Shown: in pieces, positions 2,555 to 30,506 of the stretch
Layout of the letters: each line of letters opens with the position of its first letter
How positions within the stretch are numbered: the first letter of the stretch is position 1
Assembly (NCBI GenBank): GCA_964518565.1
Contig: CAZFGX010000001.1
Span: 460,470 to 524,469, forward strand
From: an uncultured Gammaproteobacteria bacterium
GTDB lineage: Bacteria; Patescibacteriota; Microgenomatia; CAZETR01; Amesbacteraceae
Direction of reading: 5' to 3'
DNA: 64,000 nucleotides
Position numbers and translations under genes: made by a program
The notes under the pieces: model-generated
The model's database searches: none
The model's input: the letters and a program-made list of their open reading frames with translations, nothing else
Told to the model about the DNA's origin: nothing

Positions 2555-3166
2555 TTACGGCATATTCATTTCGGACATGTTGTGATGATGAAGATTTGGG
2601 GTTGAATCTGTCTGGGGAAGAGCCATGCTCATCATAGCTGCGAACATAATTGCCATAGCAAATCCCATTGCGACATGTGCAATGTCTCCTAACTTTCCTG
2701 GATAGCTCGAGCCCTTGGTGAAGTCTTGAATAACTTGGTAGATATAGAAAGCAGTGAAGGGGAGATAGAAGGCGATACCAGCCAAGTAAAAAAGAGCGTC
2801 AACACCAGGCACGAACATCACAGTCATCAAAACATTTAAGATCCAATGAACTGGATCCCACCAGGTTGGATAATTGTGTTTTGATGAATGTCGAATGAAA
2901 ACCCGCACGGCAAAGAAGATGGCGCAGAAGCCATAGACAGCTGCCCAGATTTGCCAAGGTCCATACGACTTGAGCACTCCAACCATGTTCAATCCCATAA
3001 CTGCCATTCCGATTCCATGACCTCCATGCCCCAACCAATCAGCCCAGAAATCAAAATGCTTCAATTCCGAGCGCATAAACAATCGACACACATAGATCAC
3101 CGTGACTGCAACAGACAAAAGAGCTGCAAGGCGTAAGAAAAACAATTCCAAGGGTGTTGTTCCCAT
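2555..3166 (-). CDS. integral membrane protein with His-rich motifs (possible metal-related)
   Basis: Multiple TM segments; HGGHGIG and C-terminal HHH. Confidence 0.45.
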   Translation of the reverse strand: MGTTPLELFFLRLAALLSVAVTVIYVCRLFMRSELKHFDFWADWLGHGGHGIGMAVMGLNMVGVLKSYGPWQIWAAVYGFCAIFFAVRVFIRHSSKHNYPTWWDPVHWILNVLMTVMFVPGVDALFYLAGIAFYLPFTAFYIYQVIQDFTKGSSYPGKLGDIAHVAMGFAMAIMFAAMMSMALPQTDSTPNLHHHNMSEMNMP

Positions 3167-3269: not shown

Positions 3270-4466
3270 CTAGTCTGAATCCCAGTTCAGATAAGTATCT
3301 TTATGGCTTGTGCTGGGCAGGACAATTTCTCGAAGAGAGCGTATCAAACGATCAACATCTTCTTTTGAAGTATAAATTTGCATGCTTACTCGAACTGAGT
3401 CTGCAAACTCGCTATTGGGATCCATACACATCTTTCCAGTTCGGACATAAACCCCGAATTCACTCAATCCAAACCCAATATCATCACTAGACAGACCAGT
3501 TATTTTGAATGACACAATTCCATATCCAACTGCACATTTTGCAAGTGCTACTCCTGGCAAGAATTCAATCGCATTAATGGTCCTTAATTGCTCAACCAAA
3601 TAATGAGTAAGCTCAAATTGTTGCTGAGATATGGCTTCAACTCCAATCCTCTCCATAAAGCTGATTGCTGCTTTCAAACCAATAATTCCAGACAGGTTGA
3701 GAGTGCCAACTTCTTTAAACAATCTTTCATCACGTCTGGAGTAAAGTATTCCAATTCCAGTGGGGGCAAACATCTTGTGTCCAGAGAAATATACAAAATC
3801 AGCTCCAAGATCATCTACACGAACCACTACCTTTCCTATACTTTGACTACAATCAACAATAATTCTAATCGATGGATCAATCTGATCTTTTATGTCTTTA
3901 AAAGTTGTCTTAGTTCCAAAAACATGATGAATATGTGTACCAATAATAAGACGTGTTTTGGAACTTACTTTCTTTAGCAGGTCATGTTTGTCTACTTCAC
4001 CTATGGCATTCGTCTTGTAGGCAACGAGATTTATATTAGCTCCATAACTATTTAAAATATTTTGTACTTCAATCCATGGTTCAATCGTCGATTTATGATC
4101 CTGATCACAATATAAAATCTCATCTCCATCTTTCAAGTTAGTAAGACCCCATTTGCAAGCAATTAAATGTGCACTTTCGCTTGCTCCAGAAGTAAAAAAT
4201 ACATGAGTTTGATCCTCAGATCCAATGAAATTATCCACCATCTTTCTTGTCTCTAATACTTCTTTCGTAATTTGATTTGCCCAACTATAGCTTCCACGGT
4301 CTGCGTTGGCGGTTTCACTTGTTAAATAAACAGAAACAGCATCCGAAACTATCTTTGGAACTTGTGTCAGCGCTCCGCTGTCTAAGTAGCAAATACTCGA
4401 ATCGGCAATTGCTGGAAAGTCTTGTTTCATGATGTTTTCTCCATAACCAGTCCAGCATCTCGCCAA
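3270..4466 (-). CDS. cysteine desulfurase (class V aminotransferase, SufS/CsdA-like)
   Basis: FSGHKMFAPTGIGILY PLP-lysine motif; 398 aa; overlaps the upstream gene by 40 nt (operon). Confidence 0.85.
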   Translation of the reverse strand: MARCWTGYGENIMKQDFPAIADSSICYLDSGALTQVPKIVSDAVSVYLTSETANADRGSYSWANQITKEVLETRKMVDNFIGSEDQTHVFFTSGASESAHLIACKWGLTNLKDGDEILYCDQDHKSTIEPWIEVQNILNSYGANINLVAYKTNAIGEVDKHDLLKKVSSKTRLIIGTHIHHVFGTKTTFKDIKDQIDPSIRIIVDCSQSIGKVVVRVDDLGADFVYFSGHKMFAPTGIGILYSRRDERLFKEVGTLNLSGIIGLKAAISFMERIGVEAISQQQFELTHYLVEQLRTINAIEFLPGVALAKCAVGYGIVSFKITGLSSDDIGFGLSEFGVYVRTGKMCMDPNSEFADSVRVSMQIYTSKEDVDRLIRSLREIVLPSTSHKDTYLNWDSD

Positions 4467-5728
4467 GAGGTAATTCCGCCAGATAAATTAACTGCCATAT
4501 ACGACTTATCAATAAAGCGTGCAGCTATCTTTCTAGAAAGCTCGCCGGTAGGACAAACAAAAAGCAATTCAGTCGATTTGGGGAAGGGTAGTCCACGAGA
4601 CAGCATTTCTTCTAATGTGTCATTTGGAATGTTGATAGAGCCTGGTACATGTCCCATGCGATACCCCAGATTGGTACGGATATCTATTACAAGTTTGTTT
4701 GGTACTTTTAACCATTCTTCAACTTGCAATGGCAGTAGTTCCTTGACTGCAACATTGCTCAAATCATTTATTTGCTCTTTGCTAATCCCACCAAATAAAT
4801 CTGGTCTTCTCTTTTGGTAATAAGACATGTACCATTCAAACCGATCACTGACAATAAATACTGCCTTCTTTCGAGAAACTAAATTTCGATCCAATTTGCT
4901 TAAATACTCAAGAGCGCCTGCATATCCTGCCCCACTAGTCGGTCCTCCCATGATGCCACTTTTACGAATTAAATTTACAGAGGCTTCAATGCTTATCTTC
5001 GAGTTTATTATTAGTATCTGATCATAAAATTCTTTCTCAAACAGACCTACTTCCCACATCTCACTTTCAGATCGAATGCCTGGAATAAAGTCGTCACTTC
5101 CAGAGACGATTCCTATCGTCTCCAGTTGAGGATTTTTCTCCTTTAAGAATTGCGCAGTTCCACGAGTAGATCCAGAAGTACCTAGACCTCCAAAGAAATA
5201 ATCAACATTTCCTATATCAGCATAAATCTCAGGACCAGTCGATTTGTAATGGGTTTTAATATTCTTTTCATTGGTATATTGAGAAGCATGATAATAGTGA
5301 TCAGGATTTACAGAAAGCTTTTTGGCTATGACCGAACTGACATCATTTTCTACTGTAGGATCAGGACACTCTGACAGGCCTGGCAATTCTTCAAAAGTAG
5401 CTCCAATAAATTGAACAATTTGTTTCACTTCCAAGACCTTAAATCGGTTTGTCACAATCTCAAGGTGCAAACCATAAATTGATGCTAAGGCTTGAAGTGC
5501 CTTTGCAGTATTTCCACTGGAAGCTTCAATAAAAGTTCTTTTTTCTTTTTGAATCTTTTGAATATCATCTTTAATCATCCCCCATGCGATACGATCTTTT
5601 ACAGATCCAAATGGGTTGTAATACTCAAGTTTGGCGTACAAATCAATATTTTTTAATCCGTGGACAGCTGGATCAATAAGCAAGAGTGGAGTATTTCCAA
5701 TAAGTTCAGTTATGTGTTTGTAAACCAT
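4427..5728 (-). CDS. cysteine synthase-family PLP enzyme fused to a C-terminal rhodanese domain
   Basis: N-terminus LIGNTPL...KLE..NPFGSVKDR...SSGNT (CysK/CysM fold); C-terminus VIDIRTN...FVCPTGELSR rhodanese active-site loop. Confidence 0.8.
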   Translation of the reverse strand: MVYKHITELIGNTPLLLIDPAVHGLKNIDLYAKLEYYNPFGSVKDRIAWGMIKDDIQKIQKEKRTFIEASSGNTAKALQALASIYGLHLEIVTNRFKVLEVKQIVQFIGATFEELPGLSECPDPTVENDVSSVIAKKLSVNPDHYYHASQYTNEKNIKTHYKSTGPEIYADIGNVDYFFGGLGTSGSTRGTAQFLKEKNPQLETIGIVSGSDDFIPGIRSESEMWEVGLFEKEFYDQILIINSKISIEASVNLIRKSGIMGGPTSGAGYAGALEYLSKLDRNLVSRKKAVFIVSDRFEWYMSYYQKRRPDLFGGISKEQINDLSNVAVKELLPLQVEEWLKVPNKLVIDIRTNLGYRMGHVPGSINIPNDTLEEMLSRGLPFPKSTELLFVCPTGELSRKIAARFIDKSYMAVNLSGGITSWRDAGLVMEKTS

Positions 5729-5731
5729 GCT

Positions 5732-7144
5732 TTAAATAGGTAAATAATGTTCGTCTAAATACCAACAGAATCTGTCACCATCCTCAACGACAGCAACCTT
5801 TTTTAATTTTGGTTGCATCAATGCTTCACTGGCTGAAAGATCCATTTGGTAAGCTGCTGTATTTATAAACATGACTAGATCGCCTGGCTGAGGGATTTTT
5901 GATACAAATGTCTTGTGACTGTAAATAAGATTTTTTTCCAAGCAAAGATTTCCAGCAAAAAAGATGCCATGTTCACCTGATTCATATTCTTCGTCTGGTT
6001 GCCGATAGAGGATGACTGGATCTAACAAAATAGCTTGATCGGCTGGTACCAAGTCGTCTCGTTTGATATTGAGATGAACAAGAATCTCTCCTGAAGTGCC
6101 GTATTTTATTGATTCAACTTGTGAGACTGTAATTCCCACATGATCCAACAAGGCCTTACCCGGCTCGATATAAAGGTTAGCCATCGAGTCTTTAAGAAGT
6201 GATTGAGTATCTCCAGAATGCGTGTTTAATTGGCTTGTAAGAAGCGTAGTCAATTGTTCGTAACCTTTTGACTGATTGGCATAACGATGGAAGGTTGGAA
6301 TACCTTCCAAACGATCGTTTGTCTGTCGATATCCAAATGTTACCCCTGGCCAATGTAGAGCTTCAGATTGGCCCAGAATCCCTAATTTGAGAGCTGTTGA
6401 ATATTTATCTAGATCATTTGTATCTTCTAAGAAGACTTGCCTAAACCCTCCACCAATATCAATAATTGACGGTGAAAATCCTCTGTTTTGAAGCTCTTCC
6501 AAAACAGAAAAACATTGTTCAATTGCAGTAAGTCTCTCCTTTGCCTCAGAGGTATCTAAATGAAATGACAACCCTTTGAGATCAATACAATTAGAGTAAG
6601 TATTTAATAGAGTAATTGCAGCATCAAGATCTTTTATTGGAATCCCAAATCGACTGGGTTTATGGGAAGAAGAAAAGCCTGATAGACGCAAAAGTAATGG
6701 CTGTTTTGTTTGAAGTTTGCTCGCTAATTTAGAGACGTACTCCAACTCAATAAGACTGTCTATGCTGATCAGAACGGAGTGAGAAACTGCGAGATATAAA
6801 TATTCTTTATTCTTGGGGCCAGTCGCCAATATCTTGTTTCCTCTAAATCCGCACGACAGTGCATGTTTTAATTCGTTGGCCGACGCAACGTCTACATAGA
6901 TTTCATCTAAATGAGCCTGACGAACAAGAGCTGACGACTGATTGGCTTTGTGGGCATAATAAACCCTTCCTGACAAAGCAAGATTATTGAAGACACTTTT
7001 AAACTCCTCAATATTCTCAGAAAATATCTGAGGGAAAACAATATTTAGGGAACCACCCATGCATTGAACAAGGTTAATAAGTGCCTCTTTTTCAGCAATG
7101 AAACGAGAAACAATAGAGTGAATTTTGGGTTGCAAACGCAACAT
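5732..7144 (-). CDS. PLP-dependent decarboxylase, Orn/DAP/Arg decarboxylase (alanine-racemase fold) family
   Basis: YAHKANQ (PLP lysine), IDIGGGF glycine-rich motif; 470 aa; 3 nt upstream of the CysK-rhodanese gene. Confidence 0.75.
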   Translation of the reverse strand: MLRLQPKIHSIVSRFIAEKEALINLVQCMGGSLNIVFPQIFSENIEEFKSVFNNLALSGRVYYAHKANQSSALVRQAHLDEIYVDVASANELKHALSCGFRGNKILATGPKNKEYLYLAVSHSVLISIDSLIELEYVSKLASKLQTKQPLLLRLSGFSSSHKPSRFGIPIKDLDAAITLLNTYSNCIDLKGLSFHLDTSEAKERLTAIEQCFSVLEELQNRGFSPSIIDIGGGFRQVFLEDTNDLDKYSTALKLGILGQSEALHWPGVTFGYRQTNDRLEGIPTFHRYANQSKGYEQLTTLLTSQLNTHSGDTQSLLKDSMANLYIEPGKALLDHVGITVSQVESIKYGTSGEILVHLNIKRDDLVPADQAILLDPVILYRQPDEEYESGEHGIFFAGNLCLEKNLIYSHKTFVSKIPQPGDLVMFINTAAYQMDLSASEALMQPKLKKVAVVEDGDRFCWYLDEHYLPI

Positions 7145-7202: not shown

Positions 7203-7667
7203 TTAGGAAGAAAAAGGAGGAGATCTGGGACTTTGAAGAGAGAATAATGGCTCAATAAATAGTTCAGGTGACTCATCTGTCACGTCAGGGTTAAAACTTT
7301 GTTCTGGAAGCTCAAGCAGGGCTATATTAGTATCAGTCGTTGCTGGTGCACAGCAAGGATGAGAAGTTGCATGGTCGCCATGGTCGGCATGTGCATCTAC
7401 TCGAGATAATAAGTAGCCTGGGATAACATGAGTAGTCAGAATGCCAGCAAGAATCAGATATGTGGTGACCTTCTTTGGAGATTTAAACGCCAATATGGCA
7501 AAACCGCCCAAAATAGCTATAGAAGTCATTAAAGCTAGTACTGACGACTTTGAACTTTGGGTAGTCGAAACAGTATGCATCTGGCCATGCTCCATAGCAC
7601 TGGCCTGAATAGGAGAGATGAAGAAGAGTCCAAAAAGTGTCAATAATAGTGCCAGTTTCTTATTCAT
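7203..7667 (-). CDS. secreted/membrane protein with a His-rich region
   Basis: Signal peptide MNKKLALLLTLFGLFFISPIQASA, internal TM, HADHGDHATSHPCC. Confidence 0.4.
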   Translation of the reverse strand: MNKKLALLLTLFGLFFISPIQASAMEHGQMHTVSTTQSSKSSVLALMTSIAILGGFAILAFKSPKKVTTYLILAGILTTHVIPGYLLSRVDAHADHGDHATSHPCCAPATTDTNIALLELPEQSFNPDVTDESPELFIEPLFSLQSPRSPPFSS

Positions 7668-7788: not shown

Positions 7789-8538
7789 CTATGCTTCTCT
7801 GATACCGAACATCTTAACAATGCGACTCTCGTCAATACCCAATACGTCATAAACCGTAATTTTTGAAAGCTTGCCAGTCTCTTCGTATGTTATTTCGGAA
7901 GTACGACCACGTACAAGCACAACTCTAGGCGGAACTTGCATCTTAGAAAGATTTGCAGCTATGTCAAATTGTTTTGGCGCAAGTAATGTGGGGTAAGACA
8001 TTGAGATGAGATAAACATTATCAGGTGCCTGGTCGGGTTTGCCCACGACACACAAAGAAGCCTTTGCACATATAGACTTTAATGCTTCGTTAACCTGCAC
8101 GTCAGTAAATTGTGCTGGTGTGTTAACACACAAAACTATAAGGTCATATTCAGAATAACATTTGGAATCCGAATATTTGGTTTGTTTTAGAAATTCAACA
8201 ATATCCCTAGTGCTTGCATGGTCATCTAGTGTAACTATTTCCATTTGCAATATTTTCAATCCTACTTGACCATCAATTACCACTTGTTTTGCAGCCATCA
8301 CATCTGGAGTGTTCGACTGTTTATTTGACTGCATAAAATACCTACTGTCGGGATCATACTCAATAACTCCCAGCAAGGCGATTGCTGCTTTAAACATTTC
8401 AAAAGCCCTCTTAAATTCTTGGTCCTTTAACTCTATCTCAGAATAAATCTGTGTCAGATACCAAAACGATTCAATTACCTGGCGAGGAGAATACCAGGAG
8501 TCTACCTCAAAAAGCACCTCCAGGTTATAGAAATGCAA
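7789..8538 (-). CDS. hypothetical protein
   Basis: 249-aa ORF with no recognisable motifs; overlaps the start of the recombinase remnant. Confidence 0.3.
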   Translation of the reverse strand: MHFYNLEVLFEVDSWYSPRQVIESFWYLTQIYSEIELKDQEFKRAFEMFKAAIALLGVIEYDPDSRYFMQSNKQSNTPDVMAAKQVVIDGQVGLKILQMEIVTLDDHASTRDIVEFLKQTKYSDSKCYSEYDLIVLCVNTPAQFTDVQVNEALKSICAKASLCVVGKPDQAPDNVYLISMSYPTLLAPKQFDIAANLSKMQVPPRVVLVRGRTSEITYEETGKLSKITVYDVLGIDESRIVKMFGIREA

Positions 8539-9678
8539 TGGAAAAACGACAAGGGGAAAGAGATATTGTTCCAGTAGACGGGCAGTTTGTGTTAGTAAGA
8601 AAGCTTTTTGAAGAATATTTAACAGAGAAATATTCTGTTCAAAGTCTTTGTAGATATGCTGAAGAAATAGGTGTCAAAAACACCAGAGGCAATCCAATAA
8701 GCAAGACTCAGCTTTACAAGGTCCTTAGCGACCCATTTTATACGGGGGTCAGGTATGTTTATAAATAAAAACTCTACACGAACGGCATTCATGCCAGGAT
8801 GATAACTGATCAACAATTCGATCGAATACAAGAAATACTTAATCAAAGATCGCATCCGAGAGGATCTATTAGAAAAGATCTTTTAACTGGGATAATGAAA
8901 TGTGGTCAATGTGGAAGATCGATAATTGCAGATGTAAAGGTTAAAAAATATAAAAATGGTAAATCCCAAACATTCATTTACTATCGATGTAGTAAAAAAT
9001 GGAATGGGCAGAAGTGTCTTCAAAAGTATGTCACGTCTCAAGATTTAGACCGACAAATAAATGAGATTTTGGACAATATTCAGCTACCCACTCAAATTGT
9101 TGACTGGGCATTAAAGTGGCTAAAAGTTATCCATTCCCATCAGATTGAATCCAAAATGGCTCAATACAAATCTTTAGAGCAGTCATATCAACAGTGCAAT
9201 CTTAAATTGTCCAGGATAGTCGACCTCGCATTAGCAGAATTGATTACCACAGAGGAAGCTATGGAAAAAAAAGAAGGAGCTAGAATCGAAAAAGGATGAT
9301 CTAAAAGAAAAGTTGGATAACATTGATTTGAGAGTAAATGAATGGAATAGTCTCGCTATAAATTCCTTTGAATTGGTAAAAAATATAAAACAGAAGTATG
9401 TCGAAGGAACCCCAGAACAAAAGAGAACAATTTTGCGGATTATTGGCTCGGACTTAAAGATCGTTAATAGAAAATTGGAAGTACAGCTCAGAACTCCATT
9501 TGAGTTAATTTCCAATAGTTTTAAAGAGATCGACAAAAATTTCAAGTTAGGACCCGATGATTTGGCCGATATGTCGGCCAATAGATTCGTTTCAGGAGAT
9601 CAAAAAAACATATGGGGTGGAAGACGGGACTTGAACCCGCAACCCCCAGATCCACAATCTGGTGCTCTAACCAATTGA
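8451..9678 (+). pseudogene. large serine recombinase (phage-integrase type) remnant: catalytic resolvase domain missing, one in-frame stop and one frameshift
   Basis: Three consecutive ORF fragments (8451-8768, 8799-9299, 9313-9678). They carry the recombinase domain (NPISKTQLYKVLSDPFYTG), the zinc ribbon (CGQCGRS...YYRCSKK) and a coiled-coil tail; ends at tRNA-His. Confidence 0.6.
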
Positions 9679-9690
9679 GCTACATCCACC
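9613..9690 (-). tRNA. tRNA-His (anticodon GTG)
   Basis: Cloverleaf read on the minus strand; anticodon loop ttGTGga; extra 5' G; one acceptor mismatch; CCA encoded. Confidence 0.75.
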
Positions 9691-11785: not shown

Positions 11786-13285
11786 ATGTCAGCTAGATTG
11801 CCCACCGTCGGAGGGGATGACGGTAACTGGGGAACTATTCTCAACCAGTTTCTTCAAGTTGCTCACAATACCGACGGTACGCTCAAAAACTATCTCTATA
11901 ATGTCAAAGACTATGGTGCGGTCGCGGACGGCTCTACAGACGATCGCTCCGCCATTCAGTCAGCTATAGATGCAGCCGCTACTGCTGGTGGGGGTATCGT
12001 ATTCCTCCCTGCAGGTACGTACATAGTAGGTGCCAACTCTTCTACCCCGACTAATAATATTGCCTGTGCTTTACGTCTAGGAAACCATGTTTGGCTTGTT
12101 GGCGCAGGAATGTATAGCACTATTATCAAGTTGGCTGCCAGCGCCAACGTGAGTGTTATCTCCAACTACATCTCTACCAATGGGACTGAAGCCAATGCAG
12201 AATTTTGTGCCATTCGGGATCTACAAATTCACGGTAACAAATCGAGCCAATCAGGCACGAGCCATGGAATATATTTTAGTTGTTACCCTTCTGGGTCAAA
12301 AGCCACGAATGACGACGATTTTGATACTCATCAGCTTTTTGACAATGTCATGATTTACCAGTGTCTAAACAATGGCTTTTATATGACCAATCGCAGCTCT
12401 TCTATACTCAACAACGTCTTCAGTTACAAATGTGACGGCTATGGTTTCAATCCTACATATGACACAGTACTTACTGGCTGTGTTTCAGGCTGGTCAGGTG
12501 TCCAGGGATTTTATGTAGATCATGCCAGTGTGACCTTGGAAGGTTGTAAAGCGTTTTATTCTGGCCAATCAACCGCCGCATCAGGAAACGGCTTTCATAT
12601 TCGCAATAACACCAATGGCGGCGTCTCACTTACTGGTTGTATAGCTCAAGACAATAAAAATTGTGGCTTCACACTAGATACCTCAAATCGAACTACCTTA
12701 GTAGGCTGCGTCGCCGACTCAAACTCTACTCGATCTGCGTCAATCTCACCTGGTTTTGATTTATACGCCGCTACATATAGCACATTATCTGGATGTCTGG
12801 CATTTGAACGAAAAGCCGACAATAGCAACTCATACCAACGCAACGCCTTACGTGTTCGTTCCAGCAGCACGAACAACCGAATTGAAATTACTCATTCTGC
12901 TGCCAATTCTGCCACGATTAGTACGGCTATTATGTCCAGCTCAGATAGTCTGGAAGGCAATACTATTATGATCAATAACCAAGGTTTCAATAGTTCTCAA
13001 AGTGTGACCTATGCTTCCAGTATCACTCCAGACCCATACGCCGGCAGTACACTCCGATTGACGCTCACTGGAAACATCACCATTGGTGCTACCACCAATC
13101 ATCATGCCGGTTCACGTATGACATTTATTTTTACACAGGGCGGCAGTGGGGGATATACCGTTACCTGGAACGCAGTCTACAAGGTGAGTTGGTCGCCGGA
13201 CACCACATTGGGGAAAATTAATACCATTACTTTTCAATACGACGGTACCAACTGGGTGCAAATTGGTGCCGCCACCGGCCTGTAA
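11786..13285 (+). CDS. right-handed parallel beta-helix protein (pectate-lyase superfamily / tailspike-like glycosidase fold)
   Basis: YNVKDYGAVADGSTDDRSAIQSAIDAAATAGGGIVFLPAGTYIV followed by repetitive N/G/S/T-rich beta-helix turns; 499 aa. Confidence 0.7.
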   Translation: MSARLPTVGGDDGNWGTILNQFLQVAHNTDGTLKNYLYNVKDYGAVADGSTDDRSAIQSAIDAAATAGGGIVFLPAGTYIVGANSSTPTNNIACALRLGNHVWLVGAGMYSTIIKLAASANVSVISNYISTNGTEANAEFCAIRDLQIHGNKSSQSGTSHGIYFSCYPSGSKATNDDDFDTHQLFDNVMIYQCLNNGFYMTNRSSSILNNVFSYKCDGYGFNPTYDTVLTGCVSGWSGVQGFYVDHASVTLEGCKAFYSGQSTAASGNGFHIRNNTNGGVSLTGCIAQDNKNCGFTLDTSNRTTLVGCVADSNSTRSASISPGFDLYAATYSTLSGCLAFERKADNSNSYQRNALRVRSSSTNNRIEITHSAANSATISTAIMSSSDSLEGNTIMINNQGFNSSQSVTYASSITPDPYAGSTLRLTLTGNITIGATTNHHAGSRMTFIFTQGGSGGYTVTWNAVYKVSWSPDTTLGKINTITFQYDGTNWVQIGAATGL

Positions 13286-26911: not shown

Positions 26912-26912
26912 G

Positions 26913-26997
26913 TGCCGGGGGCGAGACTCGAACTCGCACGCAGTGTTAGCTGCGCGGGCTCTTAAGGCCCGTGTGTCTACCATTCCACCACCTCGGC
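26913..26997 (-). tRNA. tRNA-Leu (anticodon TAA)
   Basis: Long variable arm, anticodon loop ctTAAga; acceptor has one mismatch. Confidence 0.8.
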
Positions 26998-27026
26998 TTG
27001 GTATAATTCGGATTATATATCGGAAT

Positions 27027-27108
27027 GGGCCGGTGGTGAAACTGGTATACACGTACGCTTGAGGTGCGTATGCCGCAAGGTGTGGAGGTTCGAGTCCTCT
27101 CCGGCCCA
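27027..27108 (+). tRNA. tRNA-Leu (anticodon GAG)
   Basis: gggccggtggtgaaactgg..., anticodon loop ttGAGgt, long variable arm. Confidence 0.8.
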
Positions 27109-27167
27109 CACAACTTCCTCACGATTTTCCAAAGCACGTAAACAATTTGTAAAGGAGTGTTATAGAT

Positions 27168-27665
27168 ATGAAACAGGCAACAGATAATGTATGGTCAAAA
27201 GTAGTCACAGACCCTTCGTACGGCCAAATGTCAAAGAGAACTCAAGCAGCCACAAAGCCCTACATCAATCGACTTCCGGAAGTTCTAGCTCCAGTAAAGG
27301 ATGATCCATTTTCCTACAAATCACTCATAAACGCCAAGCTGTTGTTTCTCCAGTTTTCACTCAGTAGCGGCATGCTCGATGCTCATGTAAAAACCCTAAC
27401 CAAGGCCGAGTTGGGATTTTTTACACAACAAGGAGTGATTGAAGTGATTAAGGGCACACTCACTGATTTACTAGACAGATATGCGTCTACTGCTCGTGAT
27501 TTTGAAGAAATGCTCAAATCAAGTGGCATAACAGAACGCGACATGATCCTGTCTCCAGCTTTAGGCCTCGTCCCCGAAGCCAAAGCCTTATACCTCAAAG
27601 GTGAACTAACAATCGGCAAGCTGATCGAGATTCAGCCCATTCTGATTGTGAAAAACACCAAGTAG
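27168..27665 (+). CDS. hypothetical protein
   Basis: 165-aa ORF followed by a canonical terminator. Confidence 0.4.
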   Translation: MKQATDNVWSKVVTDPSYGQMSKRTQAATKPYINRLPEVLAPVKDDPFSYKSLINAKLLFLQFSLSSGMLDAHVKTLTKAELGFFTQQGVIEVIKGTLTDLLDRYASTARDFEEMLKSSGITERDMILSPALGLVPEAKALYLKGELTIGKLIEIQPILIVKNTK

Positions 27666-27677
27666 TTTTCAATCCCT

Positions 27678-27707
27678 GCGCCGGCTAAAACCGGCGCATT
27701 TTTTTTT
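27678..27707 (+). terminator. rho-independent terminator
   Basis: gcgccgg-ctaaaa-ccggcgc followed by T9. Confidence 0.7.
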
Positions 27708-27738
27708 GGTATATAATTACATGTAGTTCAAGTAGTTC

Positions 27739-27821
27739 GGGCCGGTGGTGAAACTGGCATACACGTACGCTTCAGGTGCGTATGCCCAAAAGGCGTGGAG
27801 GTTCGACTCCTCTCCGGCCCA
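27739..27821 (+). tRNA. tRNA-Leu (anticodon CAG)
   Basis: Near-identical backbone to tRNA-Leu(GAG); anticodon loop ttCAGgt. Confidence 0.8.
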
Positions 27822-27840
27822 CCGAAACCTTTTACAATTT

Positions 27841-27914
27841 GGACGATTAGCTCAGCTGGCTAGAGCATCGCTTTTACACAGCGGGGGTCGGGGGTTCAAG
27901 TCCCTCATCGTCCA
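27841..27914 (+). tRNA. tRNA-Val (anticodon TAC)
   Basis: ggacgattagctcagctggctagagc...; anticodon loop ttTACac. Confidence 0.8.
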
Positions 27915-27978
27915 CACATTTGACTACAAACTTCAAGGGCTTTTTTTGTTTAATGATATAATTTTTTTGCCACAACAA

Positions 27979-28054
27979 GCCGAGTTAGCCAAGGTGGTCA
28001 CGGCGGGCGCCTGAAGAGCGTCAAATGGGGGTTCGACTCCCTCACTCGGCACCA
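27979..28054 (+). tRNA. tRNA-Phe (anticodon GAA)
   Basis: 76 nt with CCA; acceptor gccgagt/actcggc perfect; anticodon loop ctGAAga; T-loop ttcgact; one extra D-arm nucleotide. Confidence 0.65.
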
Positions 28055-28059
28055 AACCA

Positions 28060-28641
28060 ATGTACAAAGCCATCTGGACTGCAATATTTGTCATCGGAGC
28101 GCCTGCGTTGATAGGAATAAGTCTATTTGCCCTCTCCACTTTTAGTCCCGTAATTCGGCCTATACCTACTGTATTAGGATCTAGCACCCAAGAAGTCGAT
28201 CAAACACCTAGCCAAATTTTGTCTGCCATTTCTGCCTCAGTCACCACTGCCGATGCCCGAGAATTAATTATTTCTCAATATTTGACCAAATACAATTCGC
28301 CACTAGTTCCATACGCCAAAAACATTGTCGACATTTCTGATCAATATAGTTTAGATTTTCGTCTATTAGTCGCCATAGCTCAGCAAGAATCCAATCTGTG
28401 TAAAAGAATTCCCGAAAATTCTCACAATTGTTGGGGCTTTGGCATTTATGGGGACAAGGTTACCCGGTTCGACAATTATCCCCAGGCTTTTGCTACGGTC
28501 GCCAAAACGCTCAAGCGTGATTACATAGACAAAGGCTTAGATACCCCCGAAGAAATCATGCGTAAATACACCCCTCCATCCATCAAACTCGGTGGACCGT
28601 GGGCCAAGGGTGTAAATCAATTTTTATCTGATTTAGAGTAG
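28060..28641 (+). CDS. membrane-anchored secreted protein, possibly lysozyme-like/transglycosylase-like
   Basis: N-terminal TM; AIAQQESNL resembles the catalytic E-S motif of SLT-type lytic transglycosylases. Confidence 0.35.
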   Translation: MYKAIWTAIFVIGAPALIGISLFALSTFSPVIRPIPTVLGSSTQEVDQTPSQILSAISASVTTADARELIISQYLTKYNSPLVPYAKNIVDISDQYSLDFRLLVAIAQQESNLCKRIPENSHNCWGFGIYGDKVTRFDNYPQAFATVAKTLKRDYIDKGLDTPEEIMRKYTPPSIKLGGPWAKGVNQFLSDLE

Positions 28642-28650
28642 AATAGAGTC

Positions 28651-29400
28651 ATGTCAGTCGCACATTACGATGATCCAGAATTTTCCTACGAAAAATATTG
28701 GCACAATCGTGCCTACGAACACGCAGCCGAAGAAATAGCACTAACAAAACTCCTCAAAGGCAAAAAATTTACAAATGCCGTAGATATCGGTGGGGGATAT
28801 GGCCGTTTGTCTACTGTTCTACAACGATATGCCAACCATGTAACATTGGTCGAACCCTCTCAAAAACAGCGCACAATAGCCAAACGTTTTCTAAAAGATT
28901 TTCCTCAAATCACTATTAAGTCAGGCCTTTCAGACAAAACTCAACTAGAAGACAATTCTCAGGACTTAGCCATGATGGTTCGGGTCACCCATCATTTACC
29001 CGACCTCAAGCCCACTTTGGCTGAACTGTCTCGTGTTCTCAAGCCCAAAGGGCTACTTATTTTAGAGGTTGCCAATTCTCGCCATTTCAAAGCCTGGATA
29101 AAAAGTTTGGCCACAGGTCAACCTATTTTGCCTATGCCCGTAGAGCGTCGCAGTAGCGCCAATATTCGCAAAAATACTATTGCATTTGTAAACCATCATC
29201 CTGGTACAGTCTCTAAACTTTTAGCTCAATCTGGCTTCAAAATATCTCGATCATTATCGGTATCTAATTTTCGTTCACCTCAATTAAAAAAATTCCTACC
29301 AAAATCAATCCTACTAAACCTGGAGTCCGCTACCCAAACCCCCTTAGCCAGAATAAACTTTGGTCCCAGTATCTTTCTTTTGTGTCACAAGTCTACCTAA
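28651..29400 (+). CDS. class I SAM-dependent methyltransferase
   Basis: AVDIGGGYGRLS (motif I), LAMMVRVTHHLPD. Confidence 0.75.
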   Translation: MSVAHYDDPEFSYEKYWHNRAYEHAAEEIALTKLLKGKKFTNAVDIGGGYGRLSTVLQRYANHVTLVEPSQKQRTIAKRFLKDFPQITIKSGLSDKTQLEDNSQDLAMMVRVTHHLPDLKPTLAELSRVLKPKGLLILEVANSRHFKAWIKSLATGQPILPMPVERRSSANIRKNTIAFVNHHPGTVSKLLAQSGFKISRSLSVSNFRSPQLKKFLPKSILLNLESATQTPLARINFGPSIFLLCHKST

Positions 29401-29414
29401 TAACAAGGCTCAAA

Positions 29415-29443
29415 TTGACAAACCAAACACCCCATAGTACAAT
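29415..29443 (+). promoter_or_regulatory. near-consensus sigma70-type promoter (TTGACA-17 nt-TACAAT)
   Basis: ttgaca aaccaaacaccccatag tacaat. Confidence 0.45.
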
Positions 29444-29449
29444 ATATGT

Positions 29450-29526
29450 AGGTTTCGTGGCTTGGGCTAAAACCCAGGCTGTGGGATTTTAAAGCCTCGA
29501 CATTGGGCAGGAGTCGGGGCTTTTTT
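29450..29526 (+). ncRNA. candidate small RNA of about 75 nt, between the consensus promoter and a hairpin plus T6 terminator
   Basis: Internal hairpin cttgggctaaaacccagg and terminator gcctcgac...gtcggggc tttttt; no ORF. Confidence 0.3.
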
Positions 29527-29534
29527 AGTTGTAT

Positions 29535-30092
29535 TCAATCTTCATATCCCATATTTTCTTCATCTGGATCTGTCAAAATTTTGCTTCGAGTAGATCTCTT
29601 AGGTAAACGGACAGCGCGAGGTCTATCCCAAGGTGCATCAGAAACTACAACCTTGTCTTCTTTAGTTATGTGTGGTCCGGGTTTTAAAACGTAATCCAAA
29701 TGTGTCGAAAATGCTTGAATTTGTTTTTGCCGCTGCATCCTCAATACACCCAACCCACCTCGTTGTTCGGTGGACTCACTAGTCAAATATTCATTTACAA
29801 TTTGGTCATTGTCCTTATGAAGCTTCGCCAATGTTTGCCTACATTCAACTTCAGAAATTTTCGGAGAAAGAGCTACAGACCATGGTAATTCCGATTTGTG
29901 TTCCAGTTGTCTACCCAAACAATACGCCTTTGCCAAAGCCGAATATAAATAGTTGCGATAGACTGTCCGCATGATTTTTTTCTCATGTGGTTTATTTAAC
30001 ATTTGTCGTAAATTGTCTACCTCTTTCCATTGATCACTTAATTCATGCCTAAGCCGCACTTCTTCAGACTCTGGGGCAACCGAAACCTCCAT
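29535..30092 (-). CDS. hypothetical protein
   Basis: 185-aa charged ORF. Confidence 0.4.
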   Translation of the reverse strand: MEVSVAPESEEVRLRHELSDQWKEVDNLRQMLNKPHEKKIMRTVYRNYLYSALAKAYCLGRQLEHKSELPWSVALSPKISEVECRQTLAKLHKDNDQIVNEYLTSESTEQRGGLGVLRMQRQKQIQAFSTHLDYVLKPGPHITKEDKVVVSDAPWDRPRAVRLPKRSTRSKILTDPDEENMGYED

Positions 30093-30127
30093 TAAAAAAC
30101 TATAACATATGAGATAATACTAATATT

Positions 30128-30413
30128 GGGCTGGTGGTGAAATTGGTATACACGCAGGTTTTATAACGAGCGAAGTACAACGAAGCGAGATATATGAAAG
30201 GATCCAAGAGCGAATGCGATTGGGAGGTTTCCTTTCATATGAACCTGTGGGAAAATAGGCTGGTAAATCTGGGCTGGTGGTGAAATTGGTATACACGCAG
30301 GTTTTATAACGAGCGAAGTACAACGAAGCGAGATATATGAAAGGATCCAAGAGCGAATGCGATTGGGAGGTTTCCTTTCATATGAACCTGTGGGAAAATA
30401 GGCTGGTAAATCT
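30128..30413 (+). repeat. two perfect tandem 143-nt repeats; each is tRNA-Leu(TAG) nt 1-35, then a 74-nt structured insert, then the anticodon 3' stem, then 22 nt of non-tRNA sequence
   Basis: Units 30128-30270 and 30271-30413 are identical; the insert contains a 12-bp perfect stem catatgaaagga/tcctttcatatg. Confidence 0.85.
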
Positions 30414-30496
30414 GGGCTGGTGGTGAAATTGGTATACACGCAGGTTTTAGGAACCTGTCTCCAAAAGAGGTGGAGGTTCGAGTCCTCTCCAGCCCA
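30414..30496 (+). tRNA. tRNA-Leu (anticodon TAG)
   Basis: gggctggtggtgaaattggtatacacgcaggttTAGgaacctg...; long variable arm. Confidence 0.8.
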
Positions 30497-30506
30497 CAAA
30501 AAAAAC

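Follow-up and report, generated by a model that had tools for sequence, protein, structure and literature searches.

The fungal zinc chelator aspergillomarasmine A (AMA) is built by AMA synthase, a pyridoxal 5′-phosphate (PLP) enzyme that couples O-phosphoserine (OPS) first with L-Asp and next with toxin A, and its structures 8H4H and 8H4Q (apo and with OPS) are the only solved ones with a PALP-rhodanese architecture. In Fusarium poae, L-Ala is the partner with which OPS is condensed by Fda4, a PLP enzyme that also contains a rhodanese-like domain, and L-2,3-diaminopropionate is released after this condensation by a flavin adenine dinucleotide (FAD) enzyme. The antiSMASH class ‘aminopolycarboxylic-acid’, of the ethylenediaminedisuccinic acid (EDDS) type, comprises a cysteine synthase, a diaminopimelate (DAP) decarboxylase and an ornithine cyclodeaminase, EDDS itself being a Zur-controlled metallophore. 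The Y4yA protein family is named after the y4yB-y4yA-y4xP-y4xO-y4xN-y4xM genes of Sinorhizobium fredii, whose function has been described as enigmatic. Finally, desulfurases that hand sulfur to a paired rhodanese are a known form of relay (PMC8931425). Here we describe three adjacent genes, ORF1 to ORF3 (open reading frames), on contig CAZFGX010000001.1 (assembly GCA_964518565.1) of a bacterium deposited as an uncultured Gammaproteobacteria bacterium and placed by GTDB in the Patescibacteriota. They lie in a stretch of 64,000 nucleotides (contig positions 460,470 to 524,469), called the window below, and encode a decarboxylase-like protein, a CysM-like protein fused to a rhodanese domain, and a SufS-like protein (Table 1). 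We tentatively propose, at somewhat less than an even chance, that this module makes a 2-aminoethyl-type (cysteamine-type) N,S metal ligand by means of a desulfurase-rhodanese-CysM-like relay followed by decarboxylation.

The original prediction, made from the letters of this stretch, had named three minus-strand PLP genes, and all three are present, together with the motifs it quoted (YAHKANQ and GGGF in ORF1, FVCPTGELS with its Cys in ORF2). Its domain calls agree with Pfam, which found Orn_Arg_deC_N in ORF1 (2.9e-24), PALP (1.1e-47) and Rhodanese (1.9e-11; PF00581 at 44.8 bits, cut-off 22.2) in ORF2, and Aminotran_5 (3.4e-72) in ORF3. The spacing of 3 nt that it gave for ORF1 and ORF2 is likewise correct (TAA AGC ATG), but its 40-nt overlap between ORF2 and ORF3 is wrong, as this arises only with an upstream TTG start at 4466. 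We place the start of ORF3 at ATG 4430 because the public gene call on the identical contig has a product of 386 aa and the homologues of ORF3 (n = 75) start at the position of MKQDFP. The ORF2 stop and ORF3 start therefore overlap by 4 nt, ATGA, which is a classic arrangement for translational coupling.

Relatives of ORF2 were sought in one genome per species, which yielded at least 593 loci, and the best 80 were analyzed; these form part of a genome-derived set of 87 loci. A metagenome scan, seeded from an alignment of a distant Y4yA subfamily, gave another 57 loci. L-numbers (such as L169) label homologous loci, L001 being the window’s own 21-kb locus; positions given with an L-number are coordinates within that locus, and all others are window coordinates. 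A Y4yA gene stands directly upstream of the PALP-rhodanese gene in 80 of 80 genome-scan loci and in 86 of the 87 genome-derived ones, and a SufS-like gene is found in about 90% of the best 80, either downstream, or upstream with one gene between. In the metagenome loci, Y4yA stands directly upstream of the PALP-rhodanese gene in 43 of 57, with the rhodanese either fused or adjacent in 41 of 41. Carriers among the best 80 were mostly Nocardia, with Pirellulales, Obscuribacterales, other Cyanobacteriota, a Patescibacteria metagenome-assembled genome (MAG), Bryobacterales, Proteobacteria and Actinoplanes; the carriers of the module named in all are Actinomycetota (where nearly all sampled Nocardia have it), Cyanobacteriota/Obscuribacterales, Bacteroidota, Planctomycetota, Proteobacteria, Firmicutes and Patescibacteria, and the culturable ones include Nocardia and Alkaliphilus metalliredigens. 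One relative of ORF2, with 55% identity, is encoded in a Patescibacteria MAG. This gene arrangement is far beyond chance, with the same order in many phyla.

The most distant Y4yA branch has as its partner an unfused CysK-like gene together with an FAD/NAD(P)-binding gene. The constant element throughout is thus Y4yA plus a CysK-family enzyme, which fits Y4yA decarboxylating the β-substituted alanine product of its partner. The trio at L145:5162-9395 and L156:4848-9308 consists of the unfused CysK-like gene, the FAD/NAD(P)-binding gene (PF13454, ~570-620 aa) and Y4yA, and resembles SbnA/SbnB or Fda4/Fda3 logic followed by decarboxylation.

The best NCBIfam names for the three products are lysA, cysKM and sufS, and a simple reading would be that housekeeping enzymes for lysine (LysA), cysteine (CysK/CysM) and Fe-S assembly (SufS/IscS) merely lie side by side. 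However, the scores reach only a third to about half of the cut-offs. ORF1 scored 103.9 bits against the LysA model TIGR01048 (cut-off 297.9), with a match covering the N-terminal barrel only; ORF2 scored 162 of 344 for cysKM, 160 of 413 and 147 of 394 for CysM, 136 of 351 for CysK and 142 of 349.95 for SbnA (TIGR03945); and ORF3 scored 270.2 bits, in two stretches, against the SufS model TIGR01979 (cut-off 475.1). Because all three fall so far below their cut-offs, none is a housekeeping LysA, CysK or SufS, and the outcome under which the original prediction would have failed (a decarboxylase grouping with LysA and the other two with housekeeping IscS/CysK, in the absence of conserved co-occurrence) did not arise. 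Furthermore, the three genes travel together across phyla beside metal genes and not beside lys, cys or suf genes, and no SufE, SufU or SufBCD genes were found near ORF3. Scores and synteny effectively refute the housekeeping identity, which we regard as extremely improbable.

ORF1 belongs to a small, separate family: in a HMMER scan of 1.84 billion representatives, only 320 proteins matched it at E ≤ 1e-30, and no more than 699 did so at E ≤ 1e-10. The NCBI name ‘Y4yA family PLP-dependent enzyme’ is carried by two homologues (P0140 and P0178) that are 41-42% identical over 100% of ORF1, and it is from these names that the label is taken; no Y4yA model was among the matches in the NCBIfam scan of ORF1. 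The AlphaFold2 (AF2) model of ORF1, with a predicted local distance difference test (pLDDT) value of 89, shows a complete TIM barrel and a β-barrel; the solved proteins closest to it, with 15-20% identity, include DAP decarboxylases, BtrK, D-Orn/Lys decarboxylase and SbnH; against DAP decarboxylase the template modeling (TM) score was 0.65-0.72, over both domains. The general features of fold-III (group IV) PLP decarboxylases are all there, namely the PLP Lys66 in YAHKANQ, His195, the Gly-rich loop GGG231-233 (GGGF), EPG327-329 and the β-barrel Cys401, each of them shared by at least 95% of the 86 homologues compared, and ORF1 departs from its family at nine of 102 highly conserved columns.

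ORF2 carries the residues that define the CysK family (K44, SSGNT70-74, Q150, GTSGS183-187 and S265), and at least 95% of its homologues share all of these except S265; it departs from its own family at 14 of 164 highly conserved columns. A second set, K44, SSGN70-73, K76, R95, C121, Q150, R219 (in the motif PGIR) and C392, is present in at least 95% of the 87 genome-locus homologues and, apart from one Arg at K76, is invariant in 47 rhodanese-fused metagenome homologues; C392 is present in 42 of the 42 metagenome sequences long enough to cover its loop. Four of these residues (K76, R95, C121 and R219) are absent from 10 of 10 unfused CysK-like partners, which makes them a signature of the fused form. 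Cys121 lies within the motif S-E/D-C-x-D.

The top Foldseek matches of the AF2 model of ORF2 (pLDDT 84) are the AMA synthetase structures 8H4H and 8H4Q, which cover both domains, and this counts for an alternative in which the module forms C-N bonds. ORF2 would then join OPS to the amino group of Asp, Ala or Cys, much as AMA synthase condenses OPS with L-Asp and Fda4 condenses it with L-Ala, and ORF1 would decarboxylate the 2-amino-2-carboxyethyl group so added. This would give an aminocarboxylate chelator of the ethylenediamine type, an N-(2-aminoethyl)-amino acid, with the rhodanese domain in a structural or regulatory role and the SufS-like enzyme as an accessory. The ‘aminopolycarboxylic-acid’ class, with its own pairing of a cysteine synthase and a DAP decarboxylase and with EDDS under Zur control, argues in the same direction, as does the distant Y4yA branch with its CysK-like and FAD/NAD(P)-binding genes, which follows SbnA/SbnB logic. 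However, ORF2 is just 22-23% identical to AMA synthase, and its PLP domain is nearer to CysK/CysM (25-30%). The operon in the window also comes without an ornithine cyclodeaminase or other oxidoreductase. In addition, C-N chemistry leaves unexplained Cys392, Cys121, the covariation of the rhodanese loop with the desulfurase (see below), and the tight, often translationally coupled SufS-like gene with its catalytic Cys. We consider such chemistry unlikely, but rank it second, as the main rival of the sulfur route.

Evidence bearing on a sulfur relay comes first from the rhodanese domain, where Cys392 opens a six-residue loop in the motif FVCPTGELS. The loop in the window (CPTGELS) is acidic, unlike the basic loops of thiosulfate-using rhodaneses. 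An acidic loop of the form C-x-x-G-E/D together with a neighboring desulfurase was found for 34 of 43 distinct loop variants, while for loops without the acid, many of which are basic (CPGGRKS, CPFGRRS, CAAGKRS), the neighboring desulfurase was missing in seven of nine; the association is significant in a Fisher test that ignores phylogeny (p = 0.002). This covariation suggests a rhodanese domain adapted to the source of its sulfur. The PGIR motif around R219 is CysM-like, and CysM-type enzymes take bulky or protein-bound sulfur nucleophiles, such as thiosulfate or, in Mycobacterium tuberculosis, the CysO thiocarboxylate. ORF3, for its part, retains the PLP Lys219, the catalytic Cys335, the PLP-stacking His and the substrate Arg of SufS-type desulfurases; H112, D193, K219, R330, C335 and R347 are kept in at least 95% of homologues, and G332 is also conserved. 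Taken together, the invariant Cys392, the Cys121 signature, the Cys of ORF3, the covarying loop and PGIR favor a real sulfur relay.

Metal genes were surveyed within 10 kb of the module in 21 taxonomically diverse loci outside Nocardia. Classical Cu/Zn/Ni genes were present in 15 of the 21, a count that stands without a background frequency control; four had only DUF5134 or a cytochrome oxidase operon, and two had neither. The neighbors include CopZ or other heavy-metal-associated (HMA) domain proteins, P-type ATPases, CopCD, YcnI/DUF1775, NicO, Fur-family regulators (Zur/Fur), ZnuABC, Zip and CbiMQO. What makes the association convincing is the position of such genes within the operons. Among the three closest relatives of the window protein, which were looked up individually, L169 has a same-strand array of Fur, Zip, YcnI, CopCD, DUF5134, NAD_binding_1 reductase, Y4yA, PALP-Rhd, AT5 and MauE, and L170 has one of HMA-MauE, reductase, PALP-Rhd, AT5 and an HMA-MauE-DUF5134 fusion, and beyond these, on the downstream side, Fur-ZnuA-ABC; L171 has none of these metal genes and only the X290 partner described below. 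In the Patescibacteria MAG, Fur-ZnuA-ZnuC-ZnuB directly follows the module, and DUF5134 stands beside the module in L013, L020, L076, L084, L087 and L169. The fusion in L170 (9467-10744) joins HMA, MauE and DUF5134 in a single protein, a Rosetta-stone arrangement that ties DUF5134 to heavy-metal binding. Two peculiarities of these relatives are that in L170 (6023-8114) the NAD_binding_1 reductase abuts the PALP-rhodanese gene in place of Y4yA, and that in L171 (5028-6483) the Y4yA frame is split in two, either by a frameshift or by an assembly error.

Several other partners recur. A domain of ~290 aa, here termed X290, lies within the module in 70 of 87 genome loci and matches nothing in Pfam or the PDB. 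Both full-length copies examined (L003:7129-8418 and L087:12019-13350) carry a CopZ-like HMA domain as a fusion, and in L086 (11709-12578) a separate HMA gene follows X290. The commonest extra partner is a ParA/CbiA-like P-loop ATPase (~320 aa, with a conserved GGxCYH stretch), whose gene immediately precedes Y4yA in 22 of 37 metagenome loci and which may be a metallochaperone or an amide-forming enzyme; examples are L061:7437-8411, L085:6597-7553 and L018:5747-6703. Extended clusters add an FAD oxidoreductase, a GNAT-like (Gcn5-related N-acetyltransferase) protein, methyltransferases, an Asp/Asn-hydroxylase-like protein, a Fur-family regulator and major facilitator superfamily (MFS) transporters. 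They also contain a protein of ~490-560 aa (L061:5745-7436, L088:14495-15967) with no Pfam match and a DGNHR motif reminiscent of ParB/sulfiredoxin-type domains. The FAD oxidoreductase, GNAT and MFS genes mirror the fda cluster, which speaks for the C-N chemistry set out above.

The neighborhood also bears on whether there is an exported product at all. The module might instead manage sulfur under metal stress, either by a thiosulfate- or persulfide-dependent supply of cysteine or sulfane sulfur or by locally made sulfide or persulfide that sequesters Cu(I)/Zn, with the decarboxylase handling a by-product. This would suit the desulfurase-rhodanese pair and the CysM-like motif, the basic-loop rhodanese variants without a desulfurase, which look thiosulfate-dependent, and the range of neighbors, which takes in not only importers but also efflux ATPases and copper chaperones. 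M. tuberculosis cysK2, in the copper-responsive RicR regulon, can be counted on the same side. However, sulfur management leaves unexplained both the near-universal coupling to a dedicated decarboxylase and the extended clusters with tailoring enzymes and MFS exporters, which are typical of small-molecule biosynthesis, and we judge it quite improbable. A role in cyanide handling is far less probable still. In that case a β-cyanoalanine-synthase-like domain would be joined to rhodanese, these being the two classical kinds of cyanide-detoxifying enzyme, with the desulfurase contributing to the formation of thiocyanate and the decarboxylase acting on β-cyanoalanine, which is consistent with β-cyanoalanine synthases being among the close structural neighbors of ORF2 and with one locus beside a cytochrome oxidase operon. 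However, cyanide-related genes do not recur in the neighborhoods, the acidic loop is unlike that of thiosulfate:cyanide sulfurtransferases, and the Cu/Zn uptake context would be left unexplained. Two other ideas were set aside: coenzyme A/cysteamine salvage does not fit the presence in Nocardia and the metal context, and selenium or tellurium handling has no recurrent support.

Because copper and zinc genes adjoin it, the module probably makes a small S- or N-containing metal-binding molecule. For the N,S ligand that we propose, we infer the following chemistry. ORF3 would take sulfur from cysteine as a persulfide on Cys335 and pass it to the rhodanese Cys392 of ORF2, possibly onward to the family-specific Cys121. 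The PLP domain of ORF2 would turn O-phospho- or O-acetyl-serine into aminoacrylate and capture the enzyme-bound sulfur, giving a cysteine- or persulfide-type amino acid, which ORF1 would then decarboxylate to a 2-aminoethyl (cysteamine-type) N,S ligand that could serve in copper/zinc acquisition or buffering. Larger clusters might elaborate the ligand with the FAD oxidase, GNAT, methyltransferases, the ParA/CbiA-like ATPase and the unannotated protein fused to a CopZ-like domain. A bolder form of the proposal, which we see as possible but rather doubtful, is that the module represents a previously undescribed class of sulfur-containing (aminothiol- or persulfide-derived) Cu/Zn metallophore or buffer, spread by horizontal transfer, in which a rhodanese-CysM enzyme uses enzyme-bound persulfide.

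A number of points weigh against the proposed ligand. No product, substrate or phenotype is on record for any member of the module, and both characterized PALP-rhodanese enzymes, AMA synthase and Fda4, form C-N and not C-S bonds. The simple scheme would also be stoichiometrically pointless, since cysteine sulfur on a serine skeleton only rebuilds cysteine, except in the case of a decarboxylase that requires its substrate in a protected (persulfide or disulfide) form, or of a skeleton with an origin other than serine. About a third of metagenome loci are without the SufS-like gene (20 of 31 have it), the close relative L170 is without Y4yA, and the qualifications given with the loop statistic and the metal-gene count apply here as well. 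In the window itself, the family’s Cys294 is replaced by Ser in ORF2. ORF3 has diverged further than the other two, with 26 of 119 conserved columns changed; it has Met in place of His334, the residue before Cys335 in the R-x-G-x-H-C loop, and is without the GG-loop/hairpin of ~25-33 aa between the PLP Lys and the E-x-GT motif. The GG-loop is also deleted in the L169 relative and present in the other family members aligned, and since the deletion is common to the window and L169, it marks a lineage and does not reflect decay of the window copy alone.

Apart from the 40-nt overlap, the observation behind the original prediction is correct, and its interpretation, with a putative cysteamine-like product, is supported in part. 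Co-occurrence of the three genes in other genomes, on which it had made its case depend, proved to be strongly conserved. Its persulfide-relay pair has gained support from the invariant catalytic cysteines and the covariation of the rhodanese loop with desulfurase presence, its analogy to SbnA/SbnH was apt, and its view that the combination is not a standard annotated pathway was borne out; we found no paper describing this three-gene module. It had not mentioned the copper/zinc neighborhood, the match to the architecture of AMA synthase, a metallophore enzyme, or the recurring partner genes.

Table 1 Features of the window in the region of the PLP operon and beyond, in window coordinates
Feature	Position	Strand	Description
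ORF1	5732-7144	minus	470 aa, fold-III PLP decarboxylase-like enzyme, putatively of the Y4yA family
ORF1 Lys66 codon	6947-6949	minus	PLP lysine
ORF2	4427-5728	minus	433 aa, CysM-like PLP β-replacement domain with C-terminal rhodanese domain
ORF2 CysM-like domain	~4844-5713	minus	
ORF2 rhodanese domain	~4457-4726	minus	
ORF2 Lys44 codon	5597-5599	minus	
ORF2 Cys121 codon	5366-5368	minus	
ORF2 Cys392 codon	4553-4555	minus	rhodanese cysteine
ORF3	3270-4430	minus	386 aa from ATG 4430, SufS-like class-V PLP enzyme (cysteine desulfurase type)
ORF3 Lys219 codon	3774-3776	minus	PLP lysine
ORF3 Cys335 codon	3426-3428	minus	catalytic cysteine
154-aa protein	7203-7667	minus	58 nt upstream of ORF1; putative metal-binding membrane protein
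DUF5134 membrane protein	2555-3166	minus	203 aa; 103 nt downstream of ORF3; Pfam
Heavy-metal P-type ATPase	6-356	plus	C-terminal end of 728 aa (HMA + E1-E2 ATPase); rest outside the window (L001 15373-17559)
Large serine recombinase remnants	8451-8768, 8799-9299	plus	two adjacent ORFs, Recombinase and Zn-ribbon domains, no catalytic N-terminal domain
tRNA-His	9613-9689	minus	adjoins recombinase remnants
249-aa ORF	7789-8538	minus	upstream of the operon; putative coding sequence
Spurious ORF	9313-9678		reads through tRNA-His
499-aa protein	11786-13285	plus	just past tatA/tatC
Six-tRNA cluster	26912-30497		four Leu, Val, Phe

In the window, the operon lies between an HMA-domain heavy-metal P-type ATPase and membrane proteins with metal motifs, and the best explanation is that it belongs to a metal-handling island and is a minimal copy of a widespread uncharacterized bacterial module. 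The 154-aa protein encoded upstream of ORF1 has a signal peptide, the Met/His motif MEHGQMH, two hydrophobic segments and the His/Cys-rich stretch HADHGDHATSHPCCAP, with no Pfam or NCBIfam match and no homologue in other module loci; these features suggest a putative metal-binding membrane protein, and its gene is probably the first of the operon. Downstream, the gene for the DUF5134 protein is preceded by AGGAG, and the protein has a His/Met-rich tail (HHHNMSEMNMP). The operon thus probably extends from 7667 to 2555 and includes the 154-aa gene, ORF1 to ORF3 and the DUF5134 gene. No homologue of X290, the CbiA-like ATPase, F6, the FAD-oxidase, GNAT, MauE or the NAD_binding_1 reductase was found in the window, an Rfam scan gave no riboswitch or other family near the operon, and promoter and terminator scans around it did no better than on shuffled sequence.

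The recombinase remnants together with tRNA-His hint at an island border, but no att-like repeat of tRNA-His was found in the 21 kb searched. The 249-aa ORF has no family match apart from an insignificant one to TusA (E = 0.045), and it overlaps a recombinase remnant on the opposite strand. Farther along, the 499-aa protein contains pectate-lyase/β-helix and phage-tail-like (Phage_phiTE_241_C) domains. The GC skew is negative in all 2-kb bins but one across the 64 kb, with a cumulative value of -3.87.

Should the metal ligand prove real, the module would be a widespread route to copper/zinc acquisition or buffering that is independent of nonribosomal peptide synthetases and of the NIS (nonribosomal-peptide-synthetase-independent siderophore) enzymes, in carriers that include the pathogen genus Nocardia and bacteria with reduced genomes. 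It would put a desulfurase-rhodanese relay to a new use, feeding a PLP β-replacement enzyme directly, and would give a function to the enigmatic Y4yA family and also to the unannotated X290, DUF5134 and ParA/CbiA-like ATPase. Bacterial relatives of AMA synthase are of practical interest as well, because AMA-type chelators inhibit metallo-β-lactamases.

Compared with known systems, ORF2 is closest in architecture to AMA synthase of Aspergillus oryzae and to Fda4, which likewise have a CysK-family PLP domain followed by a C-terminal rhodanese-like domain. The product of AMA synthase is a metal chelator, as is proposed for the module, and the fda cluster encodes an FAD oxidoreductase, an N-acetyltransferase and an MFS transporter, as do the extended bacterial clusters. 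Both enzymes differ in being fungal and in forming C-N bonds with amino-acid nucleophiles, AMA synthase being only 22-23% identical to ORF2, and the published accounts consulted report no desulfurase or fold-III decarboxylase partner. EDDS clusters (Amycolatopsis japonicum aes) resemble the module in having a CysK-like and DAP-decarboxylase-like pair in a metallophore pathway that produces a 2-aminoethyl unit. There, the third component is an ornithine cyclodeaminase (SbnB-like) and the pathway is without sulfur chemistry, whereas the module has the rhodanese fusion and the SufS-like desulfurase; no ornithine cyclodeaminase was found in the operon, within ~10 kb or in the 21-kb locus L001, which places it outside the EDDS-type class as defined.

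Staphyloferrin B biosynthesis likewise pairs a CysK-family OPS-dependent enzyme (SbnA) with a fold-III PLP decarboxylase (SbnH) to make a chelator, and these two are among the structural neighbors of ORF2 and ORF1, respectively. It differs in its NIS synthetases, of which the module has none, in the substrate of SbnH, a citryl conjugate, and in having no sulfur relay. The CysM-CysO system of M. tuberculosis and E. coli CysM have a CysM-like PLP domain with the PGIR arginine, as in ORF2, but the sulfur carrier of the module would be a fused rhodanese persulfide and not a ThiS-like thiocarboxylate, and its product would be decarboxylated. SufS, which works with SufE/SufU acceptors, has its catalytic residues in common with ORF3, which is paired with a rhodanese acceptor instead. 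In the S. fredii cluster, Y4yA adjoins the CysK-like Y4xP, parallel to ORF1 and ORF2, although the relation to ORF1 is one of family name, the cluster lies within a type III secretion locus, and a rhodanese fusion or desulfurase is not reported for it. The module is best classed as a variant of the known chelator pathways in which a CysK-like enzyme and a fold-III decarboxylase work as a pair.

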